DNA of 64,000 bases, taken from Candidatus Hermodarchaeota archaeon. Its GTDB lineage: Archaea > Asgardarchaeota > Lokiarchaeia > Sigyniarchaeales > SOKP01. Under the pieces are notes generated by a model. The model made no database searches, was not told where the DNA came from, and saw only the letters and a list, made by a program, of their open reading frames with translations. Positions 15,656 to 56,702 of the stretch are shown piece by piece. Each line of letters starts with the position of its first letter. Position 1 is the stretch's first letter. Both the position numbers and the translations under genes were made by a program. The stretch spans positions 19,503 through 83,502 of the forward strand of contig JBHLLG010000004.1 in the NCBI GenBank assembly GCA_048885925.1. Direction: 5' to 3'.

Positions 15656-16999
15656 TTATTCTTTTCTTTTATACCTACTTTTAGAAGCACCACATTCACA
15701 TTTAAAATCGTCTGGGAGATCCTTAAAAAGAACGTCCATTTTAATTTCATCGTATTCTTTGCCACAATTTTCACATTTATAAACATATAATTCTAATAAT
15801 TTTCTCAATTCATCTCTATCTACATCTTGTTCCATCTTTTTATTAACATATGAATTAGCTTTAGTTTCTCCAAATAAAATTGCTCCTTTAAGTTTATTAT
15901 CTTTTAAAATTATTTTTTGGTAGCAACAGTCTTTTTTATCTGCTTTTTTTAATATTTCCCATCCTCCACCATGTTCTTTTGAAGGATCGATTACCCCAAT
16001 TGAAGTTAAATCAAGACCTACAATTTTCAAAGTGTTCTTAGGAGTGGTTCCTTCATACTTTACTTTTTTTGCTCCAAGTACAGATGCTGCTACTATTTTT
16101 GATTGCTCCATACATGCTGGAATAATACCCCATATCTGATTTTTATATTCTATGCAATCTCCAACAGCGAATATATCTTTTATATTAGTCTCTAAGAATT
16201 CATTTACAATAATACCTCTGTTTGTTTCAATATTTGCATCTTTAGCGATATCTATTGTTGGGGTAATTCCGGCTTGTATTAAAACAAGATCTGCTTCTAA
16301 TTTCTTTCCACCTTTTAACTTTATTCCAGAAACTTTCCCATCTCCGAGGATTTCCTCTGTTACCGCATCTAAAACCACCATTATTCCTCTATTTTCAATT
16401 TCTTCTTTTAACATAGTACCACATTCAGCATCTAATTGCCTGGGAAGCAATTGAGGAAAAAATTCAACTACAGTTGTATCTAACTTACAAAATTTTATTT
16501 GGTTTGCCAATTCTAAACCAAGTAATCCGCCTCCAATTATAATAGCCTTCTTAACTTCATTTTTTTTAATATGATTTTTTATTTCAAGCGCATCATCAAT
16601 ATTTCGTAGTGTAAATACTCCTTTTTTGTTAATATTCATTTCAATTGCATTTTTAATTGGAGGTATATTTGGAGTACTACCTAAAGCTAAAATTAACTTA
16701 TCATATCCAATAGAATTATTTTCTCCATTGAGATATATTTCTTTAACCTTAGGATCAATGCTATTAACTTTTTTATTTAAATATAAATTCAATTCTTTAT
16801 TTTTATACCAATCTTCTTTGAAAACAATTAAATCTTCAATCTTTACATTATCGGAGATTAATTCGGGTAATTTAACTCGAGTATAATATGGATAGCTCTC
16901 TTGAGTATAAATTTCAATTTCAACATGATTATTAAGATAACGGATATTTTGAGCGGTAAAGGTACCCGCTACATTATTCCCTATTATAATAACTTTCAT
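15656..16999 (-). CDS. NAD(P)H:rubredoxin oxidoreductase-like FAD protein with C-terminal rubredoxin-like domain
   Basis: KVIIIGNNVAGT (FAD), AIIIGGGLLGLELA (NAD), AVGDC. The C-terminus has YKCENCGKEY...LPDDFKCECG. Confidence 0.85.
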   Translation of the reverse strand: MKVIIIGNNVAGTFTAQNIRYLNNHVEIEIYTQESYPYYTRVKLPELISDNVKIEDLIVFKEDWYKNKELNLYLNKKVNSIDPKVKEIYLNGENNSIGYDKLILALGSTPNIPPIKNAIEMNINKKGVFTLRNIDDALEIKNHIKKNEVKKAIIIGGGLLGLELANQIKFCKLDTTVVEFFPQLLPRQLDAECGTMLKEEIENRGIMVVLDAVTEEILGDGKVSGIKLKGGKKLEADLVLIQAGITPTIDIAKDANIETNRGIIVNEFLETNIKDIFAVGDCIEYKNQIWGIIPACMEQSKIVAASVLGAKKVKYEGTTPKNTLKIVGLDLTSIGVIDPSKEHGGGWEILKKADKKDCCYQKIILKDNKLKGAILFGETKANSYVNKKMEQDVDRDELRKLLELYVYKCENCGKEYDEIKMDVLFKDLPDDFKCECGASKSRYKRKE

Positions 17000-17156
17000 A
17001 GAATAATTAGTTTATACATCTTATTTTAAAGTTTTCTTTATATATTGTAATCTCAAATTATATTCTTTATGAACAAGTTCTAAATCAAATTTAAATCAAA
17101 ATGAATTATAATTTAAATTAATTAATTTTAAAAAAACTGTAAAAAAGTGGTAATTT

Positions 17157-19093
17157 ATGAAAAACGATAGAATTTCTTATCATAAGTCTGTTCAAAAAGC
17201 TTATGAAAGACTTAAAAAAGATGGCATGAATAACATTTGGGATCGCTTTGAAGCACAAGGATTTGGAGGTGTCCCTGATAAGCGATGTCCATTTTGCTTA
17301 AAAGGAGCTCGCTGTGATTTATGCTCTAATGGTCCATGTAGAGCAGATTCCTCAATTGATAAACATGGTGTATGTGGTATTACTGCAGATGGGATGGCTA
17401 TGCGGATGATGCTCCTTAGAAATGTTATGGGTGCATCTACTTACCATTATCATACTGAAACGACTTTGAAGACCTTAAAGGCAACGGTAGAAGGTCAAAC
17501 TCCATTTAAAATTGCTGAACCTGATAAATTGAAAAGTTTTACCGAACGATTAGGGTTGGATACATCTGGTTCAGAGAAAGAAATTGCATTAAGCCTATAT
17601 AACTTTGTAAAGGAAGATTTCAATAGATCCTATGATGAACCAAGTAAAATTGTAGAGAAATTAGCACCACTTGAAAGACAAGAAGTATGGAAAAAATTAG
17701 GAATTTTTCCAGGTGGACTATATGGCGAAATGATGTTCTCAACAAGCTCTTGCCTTACAAATGTAGATGGATATTATGCAAGTTTAGCTCTCAAAGCAAT
17801 GAGACTTGGGATTGCGATGGCTTACCAAAGCCAAATTGTCAATGAATTCACTCAGGATATTTTATTTAATATTCCCAGACCTCATATTATGAGAGTGAAT
17901 CTTGGGGTATTAGACCCAGATTATGTAAATGTACTCCCTAATGGCCATGAACCATTCTTAGGGTTTGCAATGGTTCAACTTGCACGTAAATCTGAATGGC
18001 AAGAAAAAGCAAAAGCCGTTGGTGCAAGAGGTCTAAGAATAATCGCAAATATTGAAACTGGGCAGGAAATGATACAAAGATGGGAAATGGATGATGTATT
18101 TTATGGATTTACGGGAAATTGGATCATGCAAGAAGCAATTTTGGCAAGTGGTTGTATTGATGCTTTTGTTTGTGATATGAATTGCTGTATGCCAATTGAT
18201 CCTATATATGCAAAAAAATATAAATTCAAATTAGTCCCAGTCTCTGAAGTTGTAGCCTTTGAGGGCATAACTGAAAGAGTAGATTATAAACCCGATAAAG
18301 GTGAAGAACAAGCTGCAATGTTACTACAAATGGCAATAGATAATTTTAAGGAGCGCAGAGCAAACATAGAACCTATTACTGGTTTAGATATGAATGAAGC
18401 AGTAGTTGGTTTTTCAAGTGAAAGTATTGTTGCAGCTCTCGGAGGTACACTTGGACCATTACTCGATCTAATAAAGAATGGAACTATACGAGGAGTTGCT
18501 GGATTAATATCATGCACAACGCTTAGGGATTATGGACAAGATGTACATACAATTGACGTGGCTAAAGAATTAATTAAACGAGACATTTTGGTATTATCAA
18601 TGGGGTGCGGTAATGGTGCATTACAAGTTGGAGGATTATGTTTACCAGAAGCTAAAGACTTGGCAGGTCCCGGTCTTAAAGCAGTTTGTGAAAAACTTGG
18701 AATTCCTCCAGTTCTTAGCTATGGAACATGTACAGATACAGGGAGAGTTGCTGATTTATTAGGCTCAATTTCCGCTGCACTTGGCGGAGTCCCAATTCCA
18801 GATTTACCCGTTGTAGCTGCAGCTCCAGAATATATTACTAATATTTTCTAGATTAGTAAGTTCCAATGGAGCAAAAAGCGTCGATAGATGCTCTCTTCGC
18901 ACTGGCTTTCGGATTATATACCTACGTAAATCCTGTTCTCACAATCACGGGCGGTGCAGATTTAATGAAGTTATTAACTGAAGACTTGAAGCATCTCACA
19001 GGTGGAGTATTACATATGGAACTTGACACAAAAGAAGCGATAGAGAATATGTTAAAGCATATTGAAGCAAATAGGAAGAAGTTAGGTATTTAA
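17157..19093 (+). CDS. cooS: CooS-family (Ni-CODH / CooS-V-like) protein, interrupted; proposed join(17157..18833,18866..19093)
   Basis: N-terminal Cys cluster CPFCLKGARCDLCSNGPCRA...GVCGITA. C-cluster-region motifs NGHEP, CDMNCCMP, GLISCTT, SMGCGNG, YGTCTDTGR. The C-terminal 75 aa (MEQKASIDA...TGGVLHMELD) lie in another frame, 32 nt downstream of APEY. Confidence 0.85.
18834..18865 (+). other. Putative BHB (bulge-helix-bulge) intron, 32 nt, within the cooS-like gene
   Basis: Outer helix 18822-27/18867-72 (6 bp); bulge CAA 18864-66; 4-bp helix 18828-31/18860-63; bulge AUA 18832-34; inner 8-bp helix 18835-42/18852-59; 9-nt loop carrying the TAG. Excision restores the frame. 18835..18866 gives the identical product. 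Confidence 0.6.
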
Positions 19094-31576: not shown

Positions 31577-32281
31577 ATGGGTGATTTTATGTTATTTTCT
31601 GAAAATGAGATAGGTAATATTAAAAGAGAAATGGGTAAATTAAAGGATAAAGTTATTTTAAAATTGTTTACTGATTTCAAAATCCAAGAGGATGGAAAAA
31701 AAGTAAGAAAATGTATGGCTTGTGAAGGAGCATATGAGTTATTGAAAACTTTAGAAGATCTATCTGATGGTAAATTAAAAATAGAGGAAATATCCACGGA
31801 AGAAAATGAGGAAGAAGCAAAAAAGTATAATGTAACCAGAATTCCTGCTATATTATTTGTTGATGAAAATGATAAAGAAATAATTCGATACTCCGCTTAT
31901 CCGACTGGATCAGAATTTGTTCCTTTTCTTAACAGCATTCAATACTTCTCAGGTGTTAGACCTTATTATGCAGATCAAATCATTACACATCTAAAAAAGA
32001 TAGATAATTCGAAAATGAAGATTTTTATTACTCCAACTTGCCCGTATTGTCCCGCAACAGTACCAGTTCTTACATTATTTGCGATAATTAGTAAAGGAAA
32101 GGTTTCAGCCGAAGTAATTGATGTTGACTTAAATCCTGATATTGCTATGAAATATCAAGTTCAAGGAGTTCCGCACACAGTTATAAATGAGAAGGATCAT
32201 ATTTATGGAATGTTTACCCCTCAAGATCTTTTAGATAAACTTACAAAAGGTCAGAGAGATTTTGGAGGGATGTATGCTTAG
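31577..32281 (+). CDS. Protein disulfide oxidoreductase (PDO, two thioredoxin folds), paralog 1
   Basis: N-unit CMAC and C-unit CPYC (TPTCPYCP). About 230 aa, as in Pyrococcus/Sulfolobus PDO. Confidence 0.8.
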   Translation: MGDFMLFSENEIGNIKREMGKLKDKVILKLFTDFKIQEDGKKVRKCMACEGAYELLKTLEDLSDGKLKIEEISTEENEEEAKKYNVTRIPAILFVDENDKEIIRYSAYPTGSEFVPFLNSIQYFSGVRPYYADQIITHLKKIDNSKMKIFITPTCPYCPATVPVLTLFAIISKGKVSAEVIDVDLNPDIAMKYQVQGVPHTVINEKDHIYGMFTPQDLLDKLTKGQRDFGGMYA

Positions 32282-32300
32282 GAAAGGTGATTCATAAAAA

Positions 32301-32984
32301 ATGCTTTCAGATGAGAAATATAAAGAAATAATTAGAAGAGAGATTGCTAAACTAAAAAAGCCTGTAAGATTAAAAGCTTTCACCTGTAAAAGAAGACCCC
32401 CCAATGGAAGTCCAATTAGAGAATGCATGGATTGTGGTCAAATTATGTCCTTGTTAAAGATCTATGAGGAAAATTCAAATGGGATGCTTAAAATCGAAGA
32501 AATGTGTATAGATGACAATCCTGAGTTTTCCAAAATGTATGACATTCAAAGAGTTCCAACAATTCTCTTCATTGATGAGAATGGGAAAGAAATAATCCGT
32601 TATTTGGCAGCACCTCAAGGGGGAGAGATTCAACCTTTTGTTCAAGCCATTTTTGCTTTTGCTGGAGGGAACAATTATTATGAAGCAACAATTAAGCAAA
32701 ATTTAGATCGAATCCAACCAAGTACCATTAAGATTATGCTCACAATGTCTTGTCCTTATTGTCCACAAGTTGCATCTATAGCTAATTTATTTGCGATTGC
32801 CTCAAGAGGAAAGATAAGATCTGTCATTGTAGATATAATGGCTAACCCGGATATTGGTCAATATTATGACGCGGCAGGTGTTCCATATATAATTATTAAT
32901 GATCAAAAAACTTTAGTTGGAATGGTTGGACCAAATGAAATATTAAGAGCTCTGATTGGAGGTAATATACGTGTTCAATATTGA
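32301..32984 (+). CDS. Protein disulfide oxidoreductase (PDO), paralog 2
   Basis: N-unit CMDC and C-unit CPYC (MSCPYCP). Colinear with paralog 1. Confidence 0.8.
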   Translation: MLSDEKYKEIIRREIAKLKKPVRLKAFTCKRRPPNGSPIRECMDCGQIMSLLKIYEENSNGMLKIEEMCIDDNPEFSKMYDIQRVPTILFIDENGKEIIRYLAAPQGGEIQPFVQAIFAFAGGNNYYEATIKQNLDRIQPSTIKIMLTMSCPYCPQVASIANLFAIASRGKIRSVIVDIMANPDIGQYYDAAGVPYIIINDQKTLVGMVGPNEILRALIGGNIRVQY

Positions 32985-32985
32985 T

Positions 32986-33915
32986 ATGGATAGTATCGAT
33001 TTAGATAAAATTTATGATCTTATCGTTATAGGAGGAGGACCTTCTGCAATTGGCTGTGCAATCTATGCAGCACGATTTGCTATGGAAGTATTAATTGTTG
33101 GAAAAATATTTGGAGGATTAATTGCTACAACTCATATTGTTGAGAATTATCCTGCGATTACATCAATAAGTGGTCAGGGATTAATGGATATGTTTAAAGA
33201 GCACATGGATTCTTTAAATATCCCATATATATCAGATGAAATAAGGAGTATCAACAAAATTGATGATCATTTCGAACTTTATTCTTTCTTTCAAAAATTT
33301 AAAGCCTATTCTATTTGTATAGCAACAGGTTCAGAGAGGAAAAAACTTGGAATTCCTGGAGAAGAAGAATTTGCGGGACGAGGAGTGTCATATTGTGCAA
33401 CATGTGACGGTCTTTTTTACAAAGATAAAATAGTATGTGTAATAGGAGGAAGTGATTCTGCTGCCAAAGAAGCATTATATTTAGCTCAAAACACGAAAAA
33501 AGTATATATTATTTATAGAGGAGAAGATATTAGAGCTGAACCAATAAATAAAAAACGTGTTCTTGAAAATGAAAAAATAGAGATTATTTACAAAACTAAT
33601 GTTACTGAAATAAAGGGGGAAGGGATTGTAAAATCTATAGTTTTTAATAATGGAAAAGAACTCAAGGTTGATGGTGTATTTATTGAGATTGGATCAATTC
33701 CTAAATCTGATTTAGCTAAAAGAATAGGAGTAGTAATAAATGAAAAGGGAGAAATTAAAATCAATCGTAAATCAGAAACAAATGTTAAAGGTATTTTTGC
33801 TGCTGGAGATGTTGCTGATGCACCTTTCAAACAAGCCATAACGGGTGTAGCTGAAGGAGTTATAGCTGCTTATTCTGCTTTTGATTATGTTAAAGAAATG
33901 AATATCGAATATTGA
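32986..33915 (+). CDS. trxB: Thioredoxin reductase-like flavoprotein
   Basis: DLIVIGGGPSAIGCAIYAAR, redox CATC (SYCATCDG), VIGGSDSAAKEALYL, AAGDVAD. The ATG at 32986 is 1 nt after the PDO2 stop. The ORF-track TTG at 32956 overlaps the upstream gene. Confidence 0.9.
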   Translation: MDSIDLDKIYDLIVIGGGPSAIGCAIYAARFAMEVLIVGKIFGGLIATTHIVENYPAITSISGQGLMDMFKEHMDSLNIPYISDEIRSINKIDDHFELYSFFQKFKAYSICIATGSERKKLGIPGEEEFAGRGVSYCATCDGLFYKDKIVCVIGGSDSAAKEALYLAQNTKKVYIIYRGEDIRAEPINKKRVLENEKIEIIYKTNVTEIKGEGIVKSIVFNNGKELKVDGVFIEIGSIPKSDLAKRIGVVINEKGEIKINRKSETNVKGIFAAGDVADAPFKQAITGVAEGVIAAYSAFDYVKEMNIEY

Positions 33916-33967
33916 TGATATTTGAATATTTTACTTAAATTTAAAATAGAAAAAAGAAAAAATGAAT

Positions 33968-34291
33968 TTACTCAACTTTTATCTCTACACTGTGAAACTC
34001 GGGCTCTTTAAAGGGAACTTCAACTTTTAATAAGCCATTTTTATAAGTTGCTTTTGCTTCTTCTGGGTTTATAGGACAACAAAGACCATAGGAACCTATA
34101 TATATAGTATCTTCAGTTTCTCCTTTTATGAAAAAACTATCATCATGCATCTTAAGTTTAATTGATTCTTTCTCTACTCCAGGTAATTGTATTTCAATTT
34201 TGTAAATATTTTTTTCATCATCAGCCCAAGAACATACCTCTGGAGATGTTAAAAATTTTTCCGTTTCTTTTACTTCAGACAAATTTTTCAC
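33968..34291 (-). CDS. hsp20: Small heat shock protein (Hsp20/alpha-crystallin)
   Basis: IEIQLPGVEKESIKLKM...ATYKNGLLKVEVPF alpha-crystallin domain. Confidence 0.85.
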   Translation of the reverse strand: MKNLSEVKETEKFLTSPEVCSWADDEKNIYKIEIQLPGVEKESIKLKMHDDSFFIKGETEDTIYIGSYGLCCPINPEEAKATYKNGLLKVEVPFKEPEFHSVEIKVE

Positions 34292-34465: not shown

Positions 34466-35389
34466 TTAATTATGGAGTAAAACTGAGTTTGTAGATAATA
34501 GATCAGATAATTTTTCCCAGTATTCTCTTATTTCCCAATTTTGTCGATCTTTAATTTTTTCAGAGATTTCTTTTAAAATTTCCCTAATTTTAAGAGAATA
34601 AAAATAAGTTAAATTTGAAGAGATTACAGATAACATATATTGCTTTTCTCCATATCTTTCTTTGTTATCAGGAAAAGAATCAAAGAATAAATATCCTTTA
34701 TTTTGAATATTTTCAATATTAAGTAATATACTTTGAGCTTTTGTAATTCGATCATGTCCATAAATTGAAGTGGCAGCATGAAATAATTGCTTACCTATGG
34801 TGTTAATTGAATAAGGGAGATCTTTATCAGGAGGGTAAACTTTTTTTACAATGGGACCTGTAATATCGTCCCAATAGACCAATATTAAACATAAGAGAGG
34901 TTGATCTTTTTTATTAATAGCTGATGTTATTTTAATATTTAATGATGAAAGTAACTTTTTTATCTCTTTGTCAATAAGATTAGATTTTTTAATTCGTTTT
35001 ATTTTTCCAGAAATTGATGCTAGTAAATCTTCTTTATTAAAGGGTTTAGTTATATAATCATCAACTCCTAACATTTTGCCCCATCGAATATCTTCAGGAG
35101 TAGATTTTGCAGTTAGAAATAAGAATGGAATACGATTCCAATGAGGATTATTAGAAACAACACTAAAAAAATCATAACCATCCATTTCTGCCATCATTAT
35201 ATCACTAATAATTAGATCGGGATTTCGTTTTAAGTCCGATAAAAGTTTTAAAGCATCTTTGCCATTTACCGCAGTTTTGACTTCATAATTATTATCTTCT
35301 AATAAGAGTCTTAAATGAAATAGGATATCTTCGTTATCATCAACTACAAGTATTAATGAGTGGGATATATCTTGCATATTGATTTGCAT
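34466..35389 (-). CDS. Response regulator: receiver domain fused to a longin/roadblock-like C-terminal domain
   Basis: Receiver motifs VVDDNED, phospho-acceptor ISDIMM, LTAK, ITKPF. The C-terminal 150 aa (LCLILVYWDDITGPIV...ILLNIEN...GYLFFDSF...YMLSVIS) has no DNA-binding motif. Confidence 0.8.
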   Translation of the reverse strand: MQINMQDISHSLILVVDDNEDILFHLRLLLEDNNYEVKTAVNGKDALKLLSDLKRNPDLIISDIMMAEMDGYDFFSVVSNNPHWNRIPFLFLTAKSTPEDIRWGKMLGVDDYITKPFNKEDLLASISGKIKRIKKSNLIDKEIKKLLSSLNIKITSAINKKDQPLLCLILVYWDDITGPIVKKVYPPDKDLPYSINTIGKQLFHAATSIYGHDRITKAQSILLNIENIQNKGYLFFDSFPDNKERYGEKQYMLSVISSNLTYFYSLKIREILKEISEKIKDRQNWEIREYWEKLSDLLSTNSVLLHN

Positions 35390-35438
35390 AGCACTCTTAT
35401 AGTGAAACTATCAATTAAAATTATATTTAAATTTTACT

Positions 35439-37616
35439 TTATAGATTATCTATTCTTGGAAAAAAAATTGAAAAGGTTGTTTCATTTCCTAAATTGCTTT
35501 CAACAAAAATTTCTCCGTGGTGAAGTTCTATTATATCCTTTGCTATTGATAAACCTAATCCAGTTCCAGAAGTATCTCTAGCATTAGAAGCTCTATAAAA
35601 TCTTTCAAAAATATGAGGGAGTTCTTCTTCACTAATTCCTATACCACGATTTTTAAATTGAAATAAAGTCCCATTTTTTCCTTTAGGATTAAATCTTCCT
35701 TTGTAATTTTCAATCACATTTATCTTGATAATTGTATTTTCATGTGAATATTTTATCGCATTATCAAGAAGAATTCGAAAAACTTGATCAATCCTTTTAA
35801 TGTCCCCTTTCATATTGATATCTTCATTAATATCAATTTGAAAAGAAATGTTTTTTTCTTGAGCAAAAGGAGAAAAGAATAATTCTATATCTTGTAATAA
35901 TTTTAAGGGATTATAGTTTTCTAAATTAAGCTCTATTTTTTTTTCATCAATTTGAGAGAGCATGAGAATATCTTCTGATAAATCTTTTAGAATTGAAATA
36001 TTCTTTTCTTCTATCTCAATAATGTAGTTTTGTAGTTCAGGGGTTAGTGAATCTTGTTTTTGCTTGAATAAATCTAAGGACATCATTAGAACAGTTATAG
36101 GTGTTCTCAATTCATGAGAAACTGTCGATACTAAATTCTTAATTCTTCTTTCTGCTAAAATTCTTTCTGTGATATTAAGACCATAAATATTAAGATATTT
36201 TTTTTCAGTTATAGGGGTTATAGTAAACGAGTAAAATTGATTATTTAGTTCAAGCTCAACCTGTTGAATTATTTGAGTATGAAAGACTTCCTCGACTACA
36301 TTATTTAAACTAAGAGGTAATTTATTCCCAATCTCAATATTAAACAATTTTTGACCAGCATCATTTATATATAGGACAATATCATTACCAACTCTTAATA
36401 TTGGATTTGGATTCTCCGAAGGAAACTTTGCTATACTCTTAATTTCTTCTTCTGCTTTTTTGCGTTCAGTAATATTTCGACCAACTGCAACTATATAATT
36501 AATATCTCCTTGATCATTCATAATAATTGATCCTAAATATTCAAAGGGTATTTTTTTCCCATCCTTCGTAATTAACTCCATTTGAACCGTAGTATTGCCA
36601 GTTTCAATGGCATTACGTATAGCCTCTTCAGCTTTTATTAAATCTTCTTGACTGTAATAAGAATCAGGTGCTTTCATAGATAATATCTCCTCATCAGTAT
36701 ACCCACTAATCTCATTAAAAGCTTTATTCCAGCTTATCGCTTTACCGTTCTTTGGATTAAATACAAAAAAAGTATCCATTTGAGCATTTAATGCAGTTGC
36801 CGTAAATTGCTCACTCTGTTTTAATCTTGTGAATAATGTATTTAAGGGATCTTCAAGTCCCTTTTGGACAATTGCTAAATAAATGAGATAGAAAGAGGTT
36901 ATCTTAAAGAGATGGCCTATTAAATTAGATAGGTCATATACACCAACATAAAAAGTAAAAGCTAACTCTGCTACTATAGTTGATAAAATAGAAAACATTT
37001 TCAGATGAAACGTTGTTAAATTAAGCCCTTTTCTATTTTTATATAATATTATTATAGATACTGCTAAAATTCCAATAATTATATATTCGCTGATTATCTT
37101 AAACTCGGTGAGACCAATCCCTTCAATATAACAAACTGGAAAAACCCTAGCGAAAATTAATATCAGCAAAAGTGTAGTAACAACTGTATATCCAATTAAC
37201 AGATGATTTGGATTAACTTTTTTATGCATTAAAAGAAATGCCATGAGAAATGATCCTGCTTGAAGATATCTAGCAGCGATCCATAATTGAGTAGGTAAAT
37301 TTGCGTTATATCCTTCAATTATATTCATCCCCCTATATGCTAATGTATGGATTAGATCAATTGAGCCTATATATAATAAGCTAACCCCCAGAACTAAAAA
37401 TATTGAGCTCTCTATATTTTTTCGAGTATTCCATCCAATGACAAAAATTCCAAAGGCTATAACTACACTAAATAATTCAGCTATAGTATGAAATAGAAGA
37501 AAACTATAGAAGTTTGTTAGATAAATAAAAAATAATATTAAAGTAAAAACAATTATAGATGATTTACTTTGGTATCGCCTTGGAATTTCTTTTTTTGCTT
37601 CTTGCGACACAAACAC
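35439..37616 (-). CDS. Membrane sensor histidine kinase (multi-TM N-terminus, PAS domains, HisKA, HATPase_c)
   Basis: H-box STVSHELRTPIT, N-box LLDNAIKYS, G-boxes NRGIGI and GTGLGLSIAKD. The N-terminal ~250 aa are hydrophobic. GTG start. Confidence 0.9.
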   Translation of the reverse strand: MFVSQEAKKEIPRRYQSKSSIIVFTLILFFIYLTNFYSFLLFHTIAELFSVVIAFGIFVIGWNTRKNIESSIFLVLGVSLLYIGSIDLIHTLAYRGMNIIEGYNANLPTQLWIAARYLQAGSFLMAFLLMHKKVNPNHLLIGYTVVTTLLLILIFARVFPVCYIEGIGLTEFKIISEYIIIGILAVSIIILYKNRKGLNLTTFHLKMFSILSTIVAELAFTFYVGVYDLSNLIGHLFKITSFYLIYLAIVQKGLEDPLNTLFTRLKQSEQFTATALNAQMDTFFVFNPKNGKAISWNKAFNEISGYTDEEILSMKAPDSYYSQEDLIKAEEAIRNAIETGNTTVQMELITKDGKKIPFEYLGSIIMNDQGDINYIVAVGRNITERKKAEEEIKSIAKFPSENPNPILRVGNDIVLYINDAGQKLFNIEIGNKLPLSLNNVVEEVFHTQIIQQVELELNNQFYSFTITPITEKKYLNIYGLNITERILAERRIKNLVSTVSHELRTPITVLMMSLDLFKQKQDSLTPELQNYIIEIEEKNISILKDLSEDILMLSQIDEKKIELNLENYNPLKLLQDIELFFSPFAQEKNISFQIDINEDINMKGDIKRIDQVFRILLDNAIKYSHENTIIKINVIENYKGRFNPKGKNGTLFQFKNRGIGISEEELPHIFERFYRASNARDTSGTGLGLSIAKDIIELHHGEIFVESNLGNETTFSIFFPRIDNL

Positions 37617-37728
37617 CTTTTTTGAATCTGAAATTTTATTATTCTTAGATCATATTTAATATTTTTTTCTATAATATTAAAAAATTCTTACATATTAAAA
37701 AAAGCTGAAATTAATTACTGAAAATGAT

Positions 37729-38277
37729 TCAACTAATTGTAGATTTTTCAAACATAGCGTATATTGTTGTCTTATGAATCGAATAAATAAACTCTGGAGG
37801 AATAGTCTCTTTTAACTTTTTTATAAAATCGTTAATAACTTTTTCATTAAACTTATCATCATATGCCAAATCAGGGTCAAATTTGTGCAGAAAAATAGAA
37901 AAATCGAAGCTACCAATTTCATTAACTGAATTAATCACCTTTTTCAAATAATCAAGTGCAATATTATAACGCTTGACGTCTTGAATATCAATAACATATA
38001 TAATTTTATTAGCGCCCTTTACATATTTACTAAAATTATTAAAATAATCATCAAAGTAGGCCTTCTGACCTCCAAGATCCCAAATTGCATAATTTGAATT
38101 TAAAGCTTCAAATTCTTGTACATTAAGACCTTTTGTAGGCATCGGAGAATTAAAAGCAGATATACGTTTAATACCCTTTAAACAATTTAAAATTGATGTT
38201 TTCCCACTATTATCTAATCCTATTAAAACAATTTTTATAGAACCTTCAGCAAAATCGTTATTTTTTAATCTCTTCAT
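37729..38277 (-). CDS. Arf/Arl/Sar-like small GTPase
   Basis: G1 GLDNSGKTS, G2 PTKG, G3 WDLGGQ, G4 HKFD (Arf has NKQD). 182 aa. Confidence 0.85.
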   Translation of the reverse strand: MKRLKNNDFAEGSIKIVLIGLDNSGKTSILNCLKGIKRISAFNSPMPTKGLNVQEFEALNSNYAIWDLGGQKAYFDDYFNNFSKYVKGANKIIYVIDIQDVKRYNIALDYLKKVINSVNEIGSFDFSIFLHKFDPDLAYDDKFNEKVINDFIKKLKETIPPEFIYSIHKTTIYAMFEKSTIS

Positions 38278-38318
38278 CCTTTTTAAAAAAGATTTTCAAA
38301 CTTTATATTTTCAATGAG

Positions 38319-38654
38319 TTAAGTTAAAGTATCAATAACATCGACATCTCTTATATCTTTGAATTTTTCTTTGTAAAGAGTTCCTACTATTGAATTTATG
38401 CTCGATAGAAGAGTAAAAACATCCAAATTCTTTATCTTATAATATTTTACATTATCCTTCTTCTCAAAATCTATAATATTGTTTTCTGAGAGCATATTAA
38501 GATGTTTAGAAATAGTTGATTGAGATCTTCTTAATTCTTTTTGAATTTCTGATGAATTTTTATTATTTTTTCTTAATATGTCTAAAATTTTTAATCTTGT
38601 TGGATGGGCTAACAGCTTCAAAAATTCAATAGTATATTTTCTTAATTCACTCAT
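38319..38654 (-). CDS. ArsR/SmtB-family winged-HTH regulator
   Basis: LKLLAHPTRLKILDIL...SQSTISKHLNML. Confidence 0.85.
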   Translation of the reverse strand: MSELRKYTIEFLKLLAHPTRLKILDILRKNNKNSSEIQKELRRSQSTISKHLNMLSENNIIDFEKKDNVKYYKIKNLDVFTLLSSINSIVGTLYKEKFKDIRDVDVIDTLT

Positions 38655-38846
38655 CGATTTATTATAAGATTTTTTTTACTAGTTTTTAAAGCTTATTTTA
38701 ATGGTTTATTAATGTTGCTTTATTAATAGGAGAAACACAAAGATTTAAATATGATGAAATCGTAATATTCTTATATCGTGGTATCGCGATTTATGAATAC
38801 CTTATCTTCAATATTAAATGAAGAAAAAAAACTATTTTGAGAGAAA

Positions 38847-39374
38847 ATGATAAGCGAGAAAATAGGAATTGATGATATTGATTGCAAAATTATGGATTTA
38901 ATTCAGAGAGCGCCAAATCTTACTCACACAGAAATAGCAGAACATGTGAATCGTAGTCAACCAACTGTAGGTATGAGAATTAAGAAGCTTGAAAAATTAG
39001 GTGTTTTAAAATATCAAGCGGGTATAAACATAAAAGAAGCAGATCTCTGTTTTGCAAGGATTGAACTTCAAACAAAGAATCCAGATAATGCTATTGAAAA
39101 AATAAAGAAATGTCCTTTTCTTTTAAATGCATTTCGATTATCCGGAGACTCAAATATTAGTATTTTAACTATAGGCTTAAATGTTAAAGATCTTGATAGA
39201 ATTGTAAATCAAAATTTTAGAAATGACCCTGATGTTATTGATGTCCATATTGATGTAATTTCTGATATTGTAAATGATTTTGTCTTGCCAATGGACCTAC
39301 AGCTTGAATATGGAGAATTAGTATTACATAAGAATTGCTGTGGTAAATGTAATTGTAAAAGCAGAATTTGTTAA
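38847..39374 (+). CDS. Lrp/AsnC-like regulator with C-terminal Cys-rich tail (paralog A)
   Basis: HTH NLTHTEIAEHVNRSQPTVGMRIKKLE, RAM-like domain CPFLLNAFRLSGD, tail CCGKCNCKSRIC. Confidence 0.8.
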   Translation: MISEKIGIDDIDCKIMDLIQRAPNLTHTEIAEHVNRSQPTVGMRIKKLEKLGVLKYQAGINIKEADLCFARIELQTKNPDNAIEKIKKCPFLLNAFRLSGDSNISILTIGLNVKDLDRIVNQNFRNDPDVIDVHIDVISDIVNDFVLPMDLQLEYGELVLHKNCCGKCNCKSRIC

Positions 39375-39389
39375 AAGAATTCAATAAAT

Positions 39390-39520
39390 TTAATCTATTT
39401 TTAAATCTTTAAATTTATATAACGTATTACAGATGTGATATTTTTCAGATCCATCCTTAAGATTTTCAACTATAATAGATTTGGGTGTAGAATCTTTATC
39501 AATATATCTTGGTTGTCTAA
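39390..39520 (-). pseudogene. Decayed copy of the small 2x[4Fe-4S] ferredoxin gene
   Basis: The DNA aligns with 41517-41640. Translation ...YIDKDSTPKSIIVENLKDGSEKYHICNTLYKFKDLKID compares with intact ...INKDSTPKCVVVEDREDRCVKCHICTTACKLKALRID. Five of six Cys are lost, and there is no start or N-terminal half. Confidence 0.45.
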
Positions 39521-39578: not shown

Positions 39579-40676
39579 TTAGAAGAAGTTACATCCATAA
39601 CATCTCTCATTACTATATGCTTCACATCTTAAGCAATTTCTACCACATGGAGTATCTCGATTATCAATGTCAAATAAATTAATCGGGAAAAATTCTGGTT
39701 TAGATAAATCAGATGCAAATATAATTTCTGTTGAATTAATTTGGTTTTTATCAACTAATAGACAATAATTAATAAAACTATTCAAATCATCAATATTTCT
39801 CCCAATTATTCCAAATTTTAGATGAAATCGTCCTGTTATTCTTGATATTAGAAACACTCTGGGACATTTTGTAAATATGCTAACGAACTTTTCAATATAG
39901 TCATAATTTTTTAATTCAATATTAACATAAGCTGCTCTAATACCAAGCGAATTAAAATTAATATTTCCTTGAATTTTCAATGTATTAGATTCTGTTAACT
40001 TTTTAATTCGGTTTTGTATGCCTGTATGACTCATTTCTAAATTTTTTGCCATTAAAGGTTTGCTTTCTCTTCCATCTAAATGTAATTGAAGGAGAATATG
40101 TTTATCAATATTATCTAATTTTATCACTTTATCTTCCCAATCTCTTTTTTTTTTAAGTTTTTTCAGTTCTTCTAATTGCTTTTTTCCCTCTAATCTGGCA
40201 TATAAAATAGGAGAAATATATTCTGCAATTTTCTCTAATCCTTTAACATCTTCTTTTGTATAATTTGATTTCTTATTAGCTACACTAATCATTCCAATAA
40301 CTCTCTTTTGATATAATAAAGGTACTGCTATCGCCCGATTCATAGGAATATGGCCTTCAGGTGGATTCAAAGGTTGATTGGATTGAAATGTTTTTCCCTG
40401 TACTATAGATCTAGCCCAAAGTCCGTTACTATTAGCCCAATCTCCACGAGGAAAAGCAATGTCTTTACTAGGAATTTCGCATCTTTCCCATACTTCCTTA
40501 GTAAATGAAGGTAAAACCAAATCACCATCTTCCTTTATATAACCAAAAATACCATAATCGCTCTCAATTACAGAAAGTATAATGGTTAAAACTTTAGAAT
40601 AAACTCGATCATCCTCAAATCTAGTAAATGTTTCAATAATTTTATCTCTGATTTTTATTCCTAATTTTGGACTCAT
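39579..40676 (-). CDS. GAF domain fused to Lrp-like HTH/RAM module with Cys-rich tail (paralog E)
   Basis: The N-terminal ~165 aa is GAF-like (GIFGYI...AVPLLYQKRVIGMISVANK). Then the HTH (SHTGIQNRIKKL), CPRVFLISRITG, and tail PCGRNCLRCEAYSNERCYGC. Confidence 0.75.
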   Translation of the reverse strand: MSPKLGIKIRDKIIETFTRFEDDRVYSKVLTIILSVIESDYGIFGYIKEDGDLVLPSFTKEVWERCEIPSKDIAFPRGDWANSNGLWARSIVQGKTFQSNQPLNPPEGHIPMNRAIAVPLLYQKRVIGMISVANKKSNYTKEDVKGLEKIAEYISPILYARLEGKKQLEELKKLKKKRDWEDKVIKLDNIDKHILLQLHLDGRESKPLMAKNLEMSHTGIQNRIKKLTESNTLKIQGNINFNSLGIRAAYVNIELKNYDYIEKFVSIFTKCPRVFLISRITGRFHLKFGIIGRNIDDLNSFINYCLLVDKNQINSTEIIFASDLSKPEFFPINLFDIDNRDTPCGRNCLRCEAYSNERCYGCNFF

Positions 40677-40984
40677 TTATTGAAATTGCTCTTTTATCAC
40701 TTTTATAAAATATAGACAAGAGTGTTACTTTTCATCATTTAAAAAAGATTTATGTTAATATAAATAAGTAAAGTAATTATATAAAGACATTAATTTAGAC
40801 AATCTTACCGACATTTTTGAGTTAATAATTTTTGACAAAAAGTTCAACTTAGGCATAATGAAGCTTTTTCTTTTTTTTTAGTTTCATTTTGAAAGTAAAA
40901 AATGAATAAAGCTTTATAAATGAAAGCGATCTATATTTTAAATAATAAGTCAAAGTTTTTACTCACAAAATTAAGTGATTGTTG

Positions 40985-41506
40985 ATGATAGCTGAAAAAA
41001 TGGGCGTAGATGATATCGATTGCAGAATAATCGATTTACTACAGAAAGAACCAAATCTTACACATTATCAAATTGCAGAATATGTAAATCGTAGTCAACC
41101 TACGGTAGGAACACGAATAAAAAGGCTTGAAAAAATTGGAGTATTAAAATATCAAGCTGGAATAAATTTGAAAGAAGCAGATCTCTGTTTTGCTCGAATT
41201 GAGCTTCAATCAAAAAAGCCAGAAAGAACAATTGAAATCGTGAAAAATTGCCCATTTTTACTGAATGCTATAAGGTTGAGTGGTGATATAAATATTAGTA
41301 TTATAAGCGTAGGATTAAATTATCTAGATATCGACCATATTGTTAATTGCCATTTTCGAAATGACCCAGATGTGGTTAGCGTCCACATCGATATAATCGC
41401 TGATGTTCTTCATGACCTTGTTTTACCAATAGACTTAAATCTTGAATATGGAGAATTAGATTTACGAAATATGTGTAATGAAAGATGTAGGTACTATTCT
41501 TTATAA
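40985..41506 (+). CDS. Lrp/AsnC-like regulator with C-terminal Cys tail (paralog B)
   Basis: About 70 percent identical by eye to paralog A. The ATG at 40985 matches the paralog N-termini (MIAEKMG vs MISEKIG). Confidence 0.8.
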   Translation: MIAEKMGVDDIDCRIIDLLQKEPNLTHYQIAEYVNRSQPTVGTRIKRLEKIGVLKYQAGINLKEADLCFARIELQSKKPERTIEIVKNCPFLLNAIRLSGDINISIISVGLNYLDIDHIVNCHFRNDPDVVSVHIDIIADVLHDLVLPIDLNLEYGELDLRNMCNERCRYYSL

Positions 41507-41516
41507 TAATAGGAAT

Positions 41517-41756
41517 TCAATCTATTCTTAACGCCTTCAATTTACATGCTGTAGTACAGATGTGACATTTTACACATCTATCTTCGCGATCTTCAACTAC
41601 AACACATTTAGGTGTAGAATCTTTATTAATAACCTCATAGATTCCTCTAAAACATGCTTCTTCGCAAGAAAAATCTTTGCATTGTTCACATTTGGAGGTA
41701 TCTATATGATGGAATTTATAACTTTCAATAGTGACTGGATCGTCTGCTTCACTCAT
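41517..41756 (-). CDS. Small 2x[4Fe-4S] ferredoxin-like protein
   Basis: CEQCKDFSCEEAC and CVKCHICTTAC motifs, 79 aa. Convergent with paralog B, with stops 10 nt apart. Confidence 0.75.
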   Translation of the reverse strand: MSEADDPVTIESYKFHHIDTSKCEQCKDFSCEEACFRGIYEVINKDSTPKCVVVEDREDRCVKCHICTTACKLKALRID

Positions 41757-42546: not shown

Positions 42547-42693
42547 TCAGCTTGTAAAAAAAATTGTTCATTTATTTGTGATTAGAACTTAAAATAATAA
42601 ATACTAATTTTTTATAAATTTATACTAATATTTTATAAATTGTAACCATTATAAATTATTAGAAAAGAAAGAAAATTATCTTTCGTGATTTTT

Positions 42694-43242
42694 ATGATTT
42701 CAGAAAAATTAAAGCTTGATGATATAGATAGGCAAATTATTTCTCTTGTTCAAGAGGATCCAAACCTGACACACACAGAGATAGCTACTAAAATAAATAG
42801 ATCGCAACCAACTGTCGGTATGCGTATAAAGAAGCTGGAAAAAAACGGAATATTGCAATTCCAGCCGGGAATCAATTTTAAGAAAGTTGATTTAAATCTC
42901 GCCACAGTTGAGATAAATTCTAATAATCCTGAAGAAATTATGGATATGGCTAAACACTGTCCTTTTATGCTCAATGCATTTAAACTCACTGGTGATCATA
43001 ATGTTTGTATTTTACTTGCTAGTTCAAAGCTTCAAAAGCTTGATAATATTGTAAATTACCATTTTCGGAATAATCCTGATATAAGCAGTGTTTCTATGGA
43101 AATTGTCCTTGATTTTGCAAAGGATTTCGTTTTACCAATTGATTTTGATTCGGAAGAACATGATCCAACCTTGGAAAATGGTTGTGGGGAAGCATGTAAA
43201 TATAAAATTGCCAAAGCAAAAGGTTTGGTAAAAAATTCTTAA
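42694..43242 (+). CDS. Lrp/AsnC-like regulator with C-terminal Cys motif (paralog C)
   Basis: NLTHTEIATKINRSQPTVGMRIKKLE, CPFMLNAFKLTGD, tail GCGEAC. The ATG at 42694 matches the paralog N-termini. Confidence 0.8.
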   Translation: MISEKLKLDDIDRQIISLVQEDPNLTHTEIATKINRSQPTVGMRIKKLEKNGILQFQPGINFKKVDLNLATVEINSNNPEEIMDMAKHCPFMLNAFKLTGDHNVCILLASSKLQKLDNIVNYHFRNNPDISSVSMEIVLDFAKDFVLPIDFDSEEHDPTLENGCGEACKYKIAKAKGLVKNS

Positions 43243-43316: not shown

Positions 43317-43892
43317 TTAATCTACTTCTTCCTTATCTTCTTGAGTAAATTTAAATTTTGGAAGATCAGCTTTCATCGAGCAATCTGGCCCACAATATCT
43401 TCCATCGAAATTCTCAATTTGAAAATCTATAGGGACAACAAAATCATGAATTGCTTCAATCAAGATGTTTGTTTTTACATTAATCACATTTTTATCTCTT
43501 CGAAAACATAAATCTACAAGTTTTTCAATAGTTTGTAAGTCTGAAGCAGCGATAAAGCATAGTAGGTTAAACTCCCCAGAAATTTTAAATGCGTGATTGA
43601 TAAATGGGCAGTTTTCAATCTTTTTAACGATATTGTCAACATCTTTAGTAGATATGTAAACAATCGCAACTTTTATATCAACTTTCCTTATATTGAAACC
43701 TACTTGTTTAGTAAGCAAATTCTTTCTCTCTAATTTAATAATCCGAGCACCTACAGCTGGTTGAGATTTATCTATTTCTTTAGCAATATCACTATGAGTT
43801 ATATCTGGATTTTTTTCAATCATTTCGATGATTTTCTTATCGTCATTGTCTATGCTTAGTAACTCATTAAAATTTTTTTTCTTCATATCCAT
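43317..43892 (-). CDS. Lrp/AsnC-like regulator with C-terminal Cys motif (paralog D)
   Basis: DITHSDIAKEIDKSQPAVGARIIKLE, CPFINHAFKISGE, tail YCGPDC. Confidence 0.75.
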   Translation of the reverse strand: MDMKKKNFNELLSIDNDDKKIIEMIEKNPDITHSDIAKEIDKSQPAVGARIIKLERKNLLTKQVGFNIRKVDIKVAIVYISTKDVDNIVKKIENCPFINHAFKISGEFNLLCFIAASDLQTIEKLVDLCFRRDKNVINVKTNILIEAIHDFVVPIDFQIENFDGRYCGPDCSMKADLPKFKFTQEDKEEVD

Positions 43893-52994: not shown

Positions 52995-53537
52995 TCAGAA
53001 AATACTCGATTTAAATTTATTATCAATATTATTTAGATTTATATTTTCGATAAAGTCAATCTCACCAGAATTCTTTAATGTTAGCACTGTGTTTGGTTTA
53101 ATTACATATTTCGAAATCTCAATACTCGTAAATAAATTTGGTAAAATATCTATAATTTTATTCCCATAAATCATATTCCATTCATAAAATCTCAAAAATA
53201 TTATATTGGTTAGAAATTTTAATCCTTTTTCTCTTGATTCGATTGGTTTTTCTCGGTCTAAAAAATAGAATTTATAATCTGAGGATGGAAATATGTAAAT
53301 TCCATGTACTCTCTTATCTATTTTATAAGTTTCTTTTGCTTTAAATACCTGTAATGAAATAATTACATTCTTATTCCTTTCGTCAAAGAGCTTTCCATCT
53401 TCTTCTACAAATATAATACAATCATTTTTAAGGGCAATATAATGCTTTCGAGAGGTATCATCAGTAATTTTTTGAACGAGGAGATCATAATATGAACTAT
53501 ATATTTTATTATTATAGACAATTTCAATATCATTCAT
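52995..53537 (-). CDS. Hypothetical protein (180 aa)
   Basis: ORF only. Confidence 0.3.
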   Translation of the reverse strand: MNDIEIVYNNKIYSSYYDLLVQKITDDTSRKHYIALKNDCIIFVEEDGKLFDERNKNVIISLQVFKAKETYKIDKRVHGIYIFPSSDYKFYFLDREKPIESREKGLKFLTNIIFLRFYEWNMIYGNKIIDILPNLFTSIEISKYVIKPNTVLTLKNSGEIDFIENINLNNIDNKFKSSIF

Positions 53538-56147: not shown

Positions 56148-56702
56148 ATGAAAGCTAAATGGGAAATTTTACTGATTTTAATTTTTTTCGTAATTTTATT
56201 ATTAATCGTAGTTCTAATATCGGTGTTGATTGATTGGCCTCTTATAACAGAAAATTCTACTTATCTTTCAGAAGCTACATTTGATTTTTGGAGTTTAGGA
56301 CATTTTCTAGCGGGATTGGGAATGTTTATGCTTGTCTTTACATTATATTTTATAATAAAAAATGTAATAGATAAACCTGGAGAACCTCCTGGTTTAGAAA
56401 TTCCATCATCAAAAAATATTCGCATTACATGGTTGATTACACTAGTTGCATCAATATTATGGGAGATTATAGAAAATACTTTACTTTTTGCTTTAGGTAT
56501 TAAAGCTAAATTTGATAGTATTATTAATGCAACTACAGATATTCTTATATGGGGTATTGGAGGTCTTATCGCATGGTATCTTACCCATTTGATGTTTGTT
56601 AGTCATGATGACGTACACGCATACTACTTATTTACTTTCATAAATTTAGCTGCCTTCTTCATAGTTTTCATTCTTTTTGGGTATCTGACATTCAATATTT
56701 AA
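56148..56702 (+). CDS. Hypothetical membrane protein (about 5 TM)
   Basis: Hydrophobic ORF. No family recognised. Confidence 0.4.
   Translation: MKAKWEILLILIFFVILLLIVVLISVLIDWPLITENSTYLSEATFDFWSLGHFLAGLGMFMLVFTLYFIIKNVIDKPGEPPGLEIPSSKNIRITWLITLVASILWEIIENTLLFALGIKAKFDSIINATTDILIWGIGGLIAWYLTHLMFVSHDDVHAYYLFTFINLAAFFIVFILFGYLTFNI

Follow-up and report, generated by a model that had tools for sequence, protein, structure and literature searches.

A conserved gene cassette of Asgard archaea joins a two-component system with a longin output domain to a Rag/Arf-like small GTPase

What does a two-component system control when the output domain of its response regulator has no helix-turn-helix (HTH) and its genes lie beside the gene for a small GTPase? 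The question is raised by a 64,000-nucleotide stretch of DNA (hereafter the window; GenBank assembly GCA_048885925.1, contig JBHLLG010000004.1, positions 19,503 to 83,502) from an archaeon labeled Candidatus Hermodarchaeota. An earlier inspection of the letters alone, hereafter the sequence-only reading, had pointed out four same-strand genes separated by 41, 112, and 49 nt and had suggested that they make up a phosphorelay-controlled GTPase switch. The coordinates and spacers match the open reading frame (ORF) list of the window exactly: four minus-strand ORFs encode, in this order, an ArsR-type regulator, a GTPase, a histidine kinase, and a response regulator (Table 1). We give roughly an even chance to the explanation that, taken as a whole, best accounts for this cassette. 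It would be an operon-like signaling unit of Loki-type Asgard archaea, in which the two-component pair controls the Rag/Arf-like GTPase through a longin domain that most likely acts as an arginine-finger GTPase-activating protein (GAP).

In the public gene calls for this DNA, the kinase begins two codons later (723 aa) and the regulator four codons later (303 aa), which alters the spacers slightly and leaves the overall arrangement unaffected. An identical GTPase is encoded in the metagenome-assembled genomes (MAGs) GCA_048937855.1 and GCA_048940305.1, which NCBI labels Candidatus Hermodarchaeota. According to the ORF list, the window cassette contains no second GTPase gene, and the ORF list and Pfam show no roadblock or DUF742 gene in it.

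The nature of the output domain was the first part of the question. Residues 135-307 of the regulator gave no Pfam or NCBIfam match and no HTH, in agreement with the sequence-only reading. No Pfam match at E ≤ 0.1 was obtained for this domain in the window protein and 19 family members, and a family-profile search of all PDB sequences left it without a match. The top PDB match of the full regulator, 12aw_A, covers the receiver domain only and is uninformative for the output domain. An AlphaFold2 model of residues 135-307, built on a 76-sequence alignment, had a mean predicted local distance difference test (pLDDT) score of 79.6, with values of 85-96 in the core. In fragment numbering, the model contains strands at positions 33-40 and 44-51, a helix at 61-76 (82), strands at 85-91, 96-106, and 114-123, and helices at 128-146 and 153-169. 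The resulting element order is β1-β2-α1-β3-β4-β5-α2-α3; no N-terminal helix packs on the sheet, and two helices follow it at the C-terminal end. The same definition of topology separates longin from roadblock domains in the work of Tran et al. (PMC10933270). On the basis of this model, we confidently assign the C-terminal domain to the longins and not to the roadblock domains. The sequence-only reading had described the domain as longin/roadblock-like and had called for structure prediction as a check; the longin half of that description is borne out by the modeled topology and by Foldseek, and the roadblock half was dropped because the model shows the longin element order, not that of a roadblock.

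Foldseek comparison of the model with the PDB placed a GATOR1 chain of 9v0j first (E value of 3e-4). This entry contains NPRL2, as do entries 9o5a, 9o5d, and 7t3b, chains of which were also matched. Other matches were 6ulg_N, from the FLCN-FNIP2-Rag-Ragulator complex (3.4e-4), and the longin of the Lokiarchaeal Roadblock-Longin protein 8yqg_B (8e-4; template modeling [TM] scores of 0.55/0.60), and yeast Npr2 (8adl_S) and the Lst4 longin (4zy8) were among the best. C9orf72 (7o2w_A), DENND10, and SEDL ranked lower, and PAS/LOV domains appeared at weaker scores only. Chain identities were confirmed in part. Foldseek probability was 1.00 for many independent longin structures, with E values from 3e-4 to 5e-2 and TM scores of 0.41-0.60. 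As far as the model goes, the nearest structural neighbors of the domain are longins of the GAP complexes for Rag and Arf GTPases, which in eukaryotes are GATOR1 (NPRL2-NPRL3) for RagA/B, FLCN-FNIP for RagC/D, and C9orf72-SMCR8 for Arf.

At the sequence level, the signal of homology to GAP-type longins is weak but consistent. An hhalign query consisting of a 110-sequence longin-family profile (Neff 6) aligned end to end with the single C9orf72 longin sequence (128 columns, E value of 3.6e-5, probability of 71%), with the WD-GP motif in register. Liu et al. (bioRxiv 10.1101/2020.10.19.343400), working with asCOG profiles, independently named such Asgard domains NPRL2-like longin.

The WD-GP motif, written out as WD-x3-GP, lies at the β1/β2 turn of the modeled domain. 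FLCN, NPRL2, SMCR8, and C9orf72, together with one class of Asgard longins, have been described as sharing a GP motif that closes the β1-β2 loop or opens β2 and adjoins the catalytic arginine; FNIP2, NPRL3, and non-GAP longins lack it (PMC12290439). In the C9orf72-SMCR8 complex, the arginine finger is SMCR8 R147, and ARF GAP activity depends on C9orf72 W33/D34 (PMC8213707). In our model, G178-P179 open β2, and W173 lies five residues upstream of G178, a spacing equal to that of W33-D34/G38-P39 in C9orf72 (YWDDITGP in the regulator and YWDNILGP in C9orf72). G178-P179 was set in register with C9orf72 G38-P39 and NPRL2 G20-P21 by hhalign. The human C9orf72, NPRL2, FLCN, and RagA sequences that we used are 100% identical to PDB chains (RagA, 6ces_A).

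A candidate arginine finger, R245, is found in the β4-β5 loop. Its context, FFDSFPDNKE-R-YGEKQYMLSVI, can be set beside that of NPRL2 R78, CIEHKKYS-R-NALLFNLGF; R245, NPRL2 R78, and FLCN R164 alike occupy the β4-β5 loop, and each is followed within a few residues by a hydrophobic strand. In hhalign, FLCN gave a single local match, which places R245 on R164 and was not significant. The longin sheet is antiparallel with strand order 2-1-5-4-3, and its β1-β2 and β4-β5 turns are neighbors on the same edge. By this topology, R245 would be situated near the GP motif. W173, D175, G178, P179, and R245 are invariant in the close family (alignments A1 and A2), and D174 is at least 90% conserved. Among 110 diverse representatives of the wide family, at most 62% identical to one another, W is present in 104, D in 83 (N in 13), G in 102, P in 101, and R in 76, and the Arg often precedes a Gly, as in FLCN. 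The regulator-longin ORFs in the loci that we fetched have W and G in 68/68 and R in 67/68.

The second part of the question concerned the GTPase, which the sequence-only reading had called Arf/Sar-like and credited with the motifs GLDNSGKTS, WDLGGQ, and HKFD. All three are present, as G1 at residues 20-28, G3 at 66-71 (D67xxG70Q71), and G4 at 131-134, together with T48 and the G5 motif T170-T-I-Y. G1 and G3 are indeed of Arf type; the better description is a Rag/Arf-like minimal G domain, with a Rag-type HKxD motif at G4, where human RagA has HKMD (checked against 6ces_A). The Pfam Arf profile scores higher than Gtr1_RagA but is matched only from position 11 to 133 of 174, whereas the Gtr1_RagA match is nearly full length (residues 15-173) and scores 56.9 bits versus a cutoff of 22. 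BLASTP against human RagA gave 23% identity (E value of 1e-7). The best PDB sequence matches were 8yl2 (1e-23) and 8zla (1e-20), both with HKFDP and TTIY. For an AlphaFold2 model of the GTPase (pLDDT of 79.9), the top Foldseek match was again 8yl2, the RagA-like LokiRagO (TMq 0.75), followed by Asgard ArfR and eukaryotic Arl/Arf structures. LokiRagO (8yl2, with 8zla/9m28) resembles the cassette GTPase in its G domain, with 39% identity and the same HKFDP G4 and TTIY G5, but it is a 342-aa homotetrameric protein with a C-terminal extension, whereas the GTPase of the cassette consists of a bare G domain of 182 aa.

Pure membership in either family was rejected. An N-terminal amphipathic helix coupled to the interswitch toggle is the hallmark of Arf (bioRxiv 10.1101/2024.02.28.582541). 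The cassette GTPase has no such helix, its N-terminus MKRLKNNDFAEGS being polar and unstructured (pLDDT of <50 at residues 1-8), it lacks the pocket-forming C-terminal helix, and its G4 is HKFD, not NKxD. It also has no C-terminal roadblock domain, the Rag hallmark that mediates dimerization of paralogues, and ends at residue 182. This is 12 residues after G5, and helix α5 is essentially missing in the model. All 69 aligned relatives are 164-199 aa long, mostly 182. At the C-terminus (window 37729-37770), the family has a conserved IYAxFEKSTI tail, with α5 missing or reduced to two turns; AlphaFold2 draws this tail as a low-confidence strand, and a partner might cover the exposed surface. The catalytic Gln71 (DxxGQ) is kept and no Arg is conserved in switch I among the aligned relatives, so that, as for Arf and Rag, efficient GTP hydrolysis would depend on an arginine provided in trans.

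The kinase and the receiver (REC) have the makings of a canonical two-component pair. The kinase contains the H box SHELRTP at residues 500-506 (H501), the N box NAIKY, and the G box GTGLGL; the receiver has a complete set of residues, D17-D18/D63/T93/K115 (D63 codon at 35201-35203), and the two genes are adjacent. The ArsR protein has 0 Cys and none of the usual metal-binding motifs, and because it is without cysteine, it is not a classical metal sensor.

We then asked whether these genes stay together in other genomes. A close-relative search with residues 137-307 found 161 proteins, nearly all of them ~298 aa long, made up of a receiver and the C-terminal domain, and from Lokiarchaeota/Promethearchaeota-type MAGs. 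When 1.84 billion cluster representatives were searched exhaustively with a profile, only 196 proteins were returned at E ≤ 1e-3; the longin family is small and lineage-restricted. The linkage scan used one genome per GTDB species and covered 61 longin-family loci, almost all of them from Promethearchaeota/Promethearchaeia MAGs, and the cassette was counted over the 47 loci with at least 4.7 kb of upstream DNA. The arrangement ArsR-GTPase-MASE3 kinase-REC-longin, with order and strand preserved, was present in 44 of these 47 loci, the exceptions being L057, L063, and L066. Median spacers over 48 loci were 39, 78.5, and 61 nt. In the reverse direction, the GTPase orthologues P0175 and P0200 led back to the same cassette, and many of the top GTPase matches lie on contigs equal in length to those of the regulator matches. 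An unrelated fold of the output domain and a linkage without conservation in Asgard genomes were the two computable outcomes that the sequence-only reading had named as fatal to its proposal; what we found instead was a longin and a linkage conserved from both sides.

It might be argued that such adjacency is meaningless, the genes having simply been inherited side by side within one clade, and the longin resemblance of the C-terminal domain being a superficial trait of a lineage-specific fold. All loci do come from one class-level group (Promethearchaeia/Lokiarchaeia-type MAGs), the domain has no Pfam match, and in the closer subgroup, defined by a longin identity of 58% or more, the region as a whole is syntenic, including genes for HSP20, thioredoxin reductase, a thioredoxin-like protein, and Lrp/AsnC proteins. 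Because the whole neighborhood is syntenic, the loci of this closer subgroup add little independent evidence for a functional link. In the subgroup below 58% identity, the cassette was nonetheless kept in 15 of 18 loci (for example, L003), while the downstream flank was kept in 0 of the 15 loci with at least 4 kb of downstream DNA. Chance adjacency was rejected on these synteny statistics, the cassette being kept where the flanks are lost. The cassette also persists at the 35%-identity locus L066, where the kinase is a different one and a KaiC gene is inserted, and the domain itself matches many longins in Foldseek and C9orf72 end to end in hhalign. Structure match, synteny, and hhalign have already largely refuted the argument from descent, and we regard it as very improbable.

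Locus L066 (1309-8423) encodes, in this order, ArsR, a GTPase with HKAD, a KaiC-like ATPase, a PAS kinase, and two tandem REC-longin proteins. The best Pfam match of its GTPase is Gtr1_RagA, its kinase lacks MASE3, and its ATPase is of the KaiC-like double-RecA type. Of the tandem longins, only the second has the Arg; the first has Asn at that position. By analogy, this pair, seen at a single locus, resembles the catalytic/non-catalytic pairs NPRL2/NPRL3, FLCN/FNIP, and SMCR8/C9orf72. L066 has the look of a heterodimeric longin pair, possibly with a clock-like ATPase input.

A different kind of link is provided by P0264 (locus L071, 76-1212), a complete 378-aa ORF in which a Ras-like G domain is joined to a longin that retains WDD..GP and the Arg. 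The G3 motif of this G domain, WNFSGEE, lacks the catalytic Gln. Judged by its domains, P0264 is a fusion-type ("Rosetta stone") link between the longin family and small GTPases. The longin family also occurs as hybrid kinase-REC-longin, HATPase-longin, PAS-longin, RsbRD_N-longin, and standalone longin proteins, and some REC-longin proteins have an extra C-terminal domain of ~125 aa. Other fusion proteins of the family are P0275, P0286, P0379, P0246, P0258, and P0310.

Taken together in the explanation that we favor, these parts would work as follows. The MASE3-PAS kinase would sense a membrane or cytoplasmic cue, autophosphorylate on H501, and pass the phosphate to D63 of the regulator. Phosphorylation of D63 would alter the oligomeric state of the receiver, most likely by dimerization, and the receiver dimer would bring two longins into a paired cradle, as in GATOR1, FLCN-FNIP, and C9orf72-SMCR8. 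The longin pair could then bind the GTP form of the GTPase via the WD-GP surface and insert R245 beside Q71 of the GTPase, which would stimulate GTP hydrolysis and make the regulator a phosphorylation-gated GAP. The ArsR-type protein, whose gene invariably comes first, would probably autoregulate the cassette at ATCGCGAT and the CGAT repeats upstream of its gene.

Several observations weigh against this explanation. The structural similarity of the longin to its matches is moderate (Foldseek E values of ~3e-4, TM scores of 0.43-0.55), and support at the sequence level is weak, with neither a Pfam nor a PDB sequence match. The hhalign probability was 10% for NPRL2, where only β1-β2 was aligned (E value of 0.003, GP in register), and the comparison with FLCN was not significant (E value of 0.56). 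With a C9orf72 profile of low diversity, the probability fell from 71% to 44%; this profile is shallow, as the homologue search yielded vertebrate sequences only, 75-100% identical. The proximity of R245 to the GP motif follows from sheet topology, and R245 is absent from ~30% of the wider family and could be structural. The window also departs from the GAP class, whose longins work in pairs and carry a DENN or NPRL2 C-terminal domain, in having one regulator gene whose protein ends with the longin; two tandem paralogues are present only at L066.

The direction of regulation could also be a different one. The longin may contact the GTPase directly and serve as an exchange factor for guanine nucleotides (GEF) or as a nucleotide-state-specific scaffold or effector platform, not as a GAP, on the model of TRAPP, Mon1-Ccz1, DENN, or Ragulator-type assemblies; the effect of phosphorylation would then be to turn the GTPase on or to move it elsewhere. 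Most longin/roadblock platforms are GEFs or scaffolds (PMC12290439), as are most longin platforms outside the GP-motif GAP class, and DENND10 and TRAPP-type SEDL are among the structural matches of the domain. MglB-type partners have been given GAP, GEF, and effector roles in different studies, and the linkage evidence does not discriminate between directions of regulation. Yet GAP longins have the GP motif and GEF-type longins lack it (PMC12290439), the domain combines this motif with a C9orf72-like WD and a near-invariant loop Arg, and its top structural matches are longins of GAP complexes. We consider a GEF or scaffold unlikely and prefer the arginine-finger GAP.

Nor does a shared operon by itself make the GTPase the target of the regulator. 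The longin may be a generic protein-protein output that acts on ArsR, the kinase, or an unlinked target, with the GTPase a separate input or accessory of the kinase that shares the operon only through co-regulation; the accessory proteins that modulate the kinase CvnA in bacterial conservons offer a precedent for such control (PMC13343842). Loci L057 and L063, which have the regulator-longin and the kinase and no adjacent GTPase, fit this alternative and count against a dedicated GTPase switch, and the family's fusions to PAS, RsbRD_N, HATPase, and hybrid kinase modules also point its way. On the other side stand the strict retention of gene order where flanking synteny is lost, the existence of the Ras-like GTPase-longin fusion, and the fact that all known functions of the GP-motif longin class concern small GTPases (PMC12290439, PMC8213707). 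A generic output with a bystander GTPase is in our view improbable.

How the proposed GAP relates to the eukaryotic ones can be considered feature by feature. Like the longins of eukaryotic GAPs, the cassette domain has a longin fold, GP at the start of β2, a C9orf72-type WD, and an Arg between β4 and β5, and, as in the eukaryotic systems, the presumed substrate is a Rag/Arf-type GTPase with a catalytic Gln. Unlike the eukaryotic complexes, the cassette has a longin without a DENN/NPRL2 C-terminal domain and fused to a receiver. The eukaryotic assemblies are obligate heterodimers, whereas the cassette longin is presumably a homodimer, and the GTPase lacks the C-terminal roadblock domain. Control would be exerted by His-Asp phosphotransfer here and is exerted by amino-acid sensors in eukaryotes, and sequence similarity is marginal. 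We tentatively suggest, as a possibility that we hold with some doubt, that the Rag-GATOR1/FLCN or Arf-C9orf72/SMCR8 axis has a minimal prokaryotic counterpart in the cassette. His-Asp phosphorylation would switch on a homodimeric longin GAP with an arginine finger, and this GAP would act on a bare G domain.

The sequence-only reading had added that it knew of no characterized example of such wiring, and here precedents do exist. Liu et al. (bioRxiv 10.1101/2020.10.19.343400, Fig. 5c) described Asgard proteins in which NPRL2-like longins are joined to two-component domains and proposed growth regulation via two-component systems with eukaryote-like parts. These fusions and the GP-motif longins of FLCN/SMCR8 type (PMC12290439) represent the same domain and the same kind of fusion as the window regulator, which is very probably one of these Asgard longin proteins. 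Both studies describe architectures and motifs, no conserved GTPase operon, and the partner GTPase family of the Asgard GP-motif longins (ArfR or Rag-type) was left open in PMC12290439; the cassette supplies a candidate partner.

Actinobacterial conservons (AGPS) consist of the kinase CvnA, the MglB-type roadblock protein CvnB, CvnC (DUF742), and the MglA-type GTPase CvnD (PMC13343842, PMC4316618). Like the cassette, they are four-gene operons that connect a histidine kinase and a Ras-superfamily GTPase via a protein of the roadblock/longin superfamily. They differ from it in being bacterial, in having DUF742, no response regulator, and no ArsR, and in a roadblock protein without an Arg finger. 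The likeness is one of functional analogy only, with no homology beyond the superfamily level. In Myxococcus, receiver proteins feed a GTPase/roadblock-GAP module (MglA/MglB, RomR, and Frz; PMC4316618), as we propose for the cassette, but the receiver and the GAP are separate proteins there and their genes are unclustered. In the REC-NitrOD3 proteins of Thaumarchaeota (PMC5847659), a receiver is fused to a roadblock-like output, much as the cassette receiver is fused to a longin; unlike the cassette longin, NitrOD3 resembles a roadblock, is without the GP/Arg motifs, and has not been reported in linkage with a GTPase. The wiring of kinases to GTPases is already known in kind, and the conserved link of a longin regulator to a GTPase, as read from gene order, appears to be new: a literature search that was light on subscription papers turned up no account of a conserved operon in which such a regulator is linked to ArsR and a specific Rag/Arf-like GTPase.

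Asgard genomes are rich in small GTPases and in longin/roadblock proteins, and which of these regulates which is almost unknown; Tran et al. (PMC10933270) likewise describe what Rab and Rag proteins do in Asgard archaea as unknown. The cassette offers a defined candidate pair for the Asgard GP-motif longins, backed by the conserved linkage and by the Ras-like GTPase-longin fusion. Its components are small, all but the membrane-bound kinase are predicted to be soluble, and D63 phosphorylation can be mimicked in vitro, which makes the cassette a small, testable candidate forerunner of eukaryotic GTPase control. Should the regulator be a phosphorylation-gated arginine-finger GAP, the catalytic mechanism of GATOR1, FLCN, and C9orf72-SMCR8 would predate eukaryogenesis, longin-GAP chemistry would have been wired first to two-component sensing, and the GTPase partner of the Asgard GP-motif longins would be identified; the cassette would then show a prokaryotic sensing front-end coupled to a eukaryote-type GTPase module. 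Should it not be a GAP, the case would be a warning against inferring function from GP/Arg motifs alone.

Table 1. Features of the cassette and of its upstream region (window coordinates; -, minus strand; +, plus strand)
Feature	Position	Strand	Details
Rag/Arf-like small GTPase	37729..38277	-	182 aa; Pfam Arf 2.4e-21 (76.4 bits), Gtr1_RagA 2.6e-15 (56.9 bits)
G4 motif HKFD (Rag-type HKxD instead of NKxD)	37876..37887	-	H131, K132, D134 invariant in 69 family members
Response regulator: receiver, linker helix, flexible linker, longin	34466..35389	-	307 aa
Receiver (REC) domain	aa 13-126, nt 35012..35353	-	Pfam Response_reg 2.4e-25
Longin output domain	aa 164-307, nt 34469..34900	-	AlphaFold2 model, Foldseek, and hhalign
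WD-x3-GP motif W173-D174-D175-I-T-G178-P179, β1/β2 turn	34853..34873	-	YWDDITGP 172-179
R245 codon, candidate arginine finger, β4-β5 loop (...FFDSFPDNKERYGEKQYM...)	34655..34657	-	Conservation and loop context
Membrane sensor histidine kinase	35439..37616	-	725 aa; MASE3, PAS, HisKA, HATPase_c
MASE3	aa 35-257, nt 36846-37514	-	Pfam 8.8e-83
PAS	aa 275-384, nt 36465-36794	-	Pfam PAS_9 7e-14
HisKA with H501	aa 493-558, nt 35943-36140	-	Pfam 1.4e-10
HATPase_c	aa 604-721, nt 35454-35807	-	Pfam 7e-26
ArsR/SmtB-type winged-helix regulator, cassette gene 1	38319..38654	-	111 aa; Pfam HTH_5 3e-12; NCBIfam HTH_metalloreg 1.6e-18
Candidate operator/promoter upstream of ArsR gene	38743..38790	-	Palindrome ATCGCGAT 38783-38790; TATA-like ATATTTAAAT 38743-38752
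Lrp/AsnC-type paralogues, five	38847-39374 (+), 39579-40676 (-), 40979-41506 (+), 42685-43242 (+), 43317-43892 (-)		

Upstream of the ArsR gene, the perfect palindrome ATCGCGAT is followed by CGATAT and TACGAT repeats, both of which contain CGAT, and then by ATATTTAAAT, in an intergenic region of ~26% GC. The palindrome lies at -128 to -151 from the ArsR ATG in 27 of 48 loci, all of which belong to the closer subgroup. Such an arrangement suggests that transcription is autoregulated, with either ArsR or the Lrp/AsnC protein encoded divergently from it as the regulator; alternatively, the palindrome may be an operator of the Lrp gene. The first Lrp/AsnC gene is divergent from the ArsR gene and adjoins the cassette in most loci. 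It belongs to the cluster of paralogues directly upstream of the cassette, one of which has an N-terminal GAF domain. At least four of the paralogues end in Cys-rich tails (e.g., ...CCGKCNCKSRIC and ...CGRNCLRCEAYSNERCYGCNFF), which suggests metal- or redox-sensing variants.

Genes with a redox or sulfur-stress flavor occur elsewhere in the surroundings (31577-34291, 6293-8653, and 15656-18851). They encode two thioredoxin-like paralogues (44% mutual identity), thioredoxin reductase, HSP20, a fusion of a CoA-disulfide-reductase-like protein with TusA and rhodanese, a rubredoxin-reductase-like flavoprotein, and a hybrid-cluster (prismane) protein. The block for the thioredoxin-like protein, thioredoxin reductase, and HSP20 accompanies the cassette only in the closer subgroup, and because these neighbors are conserved only there, they are at best a weak hint at the signal. 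GC content is 25-34% throughout the window, and the whole 64 kb contain no tRNA gene and no Rfam family at the gathering threshold. Three further ORFs, at 57181-58491 (-, 436 aa), 52995-53537 (-, 180 aa), and 56148-56702 (+, 184 aa), had no Pfam match at 1e-5. At 41517-41756 (-), a Cys-rich ferredoxin-like ORF of 79 aa is conserved near the cassette in the closer subgroup, and a 37-residue partial copy of it (54% identity) lies at 39393-39503 (-), between two of the Lrp paralogues.

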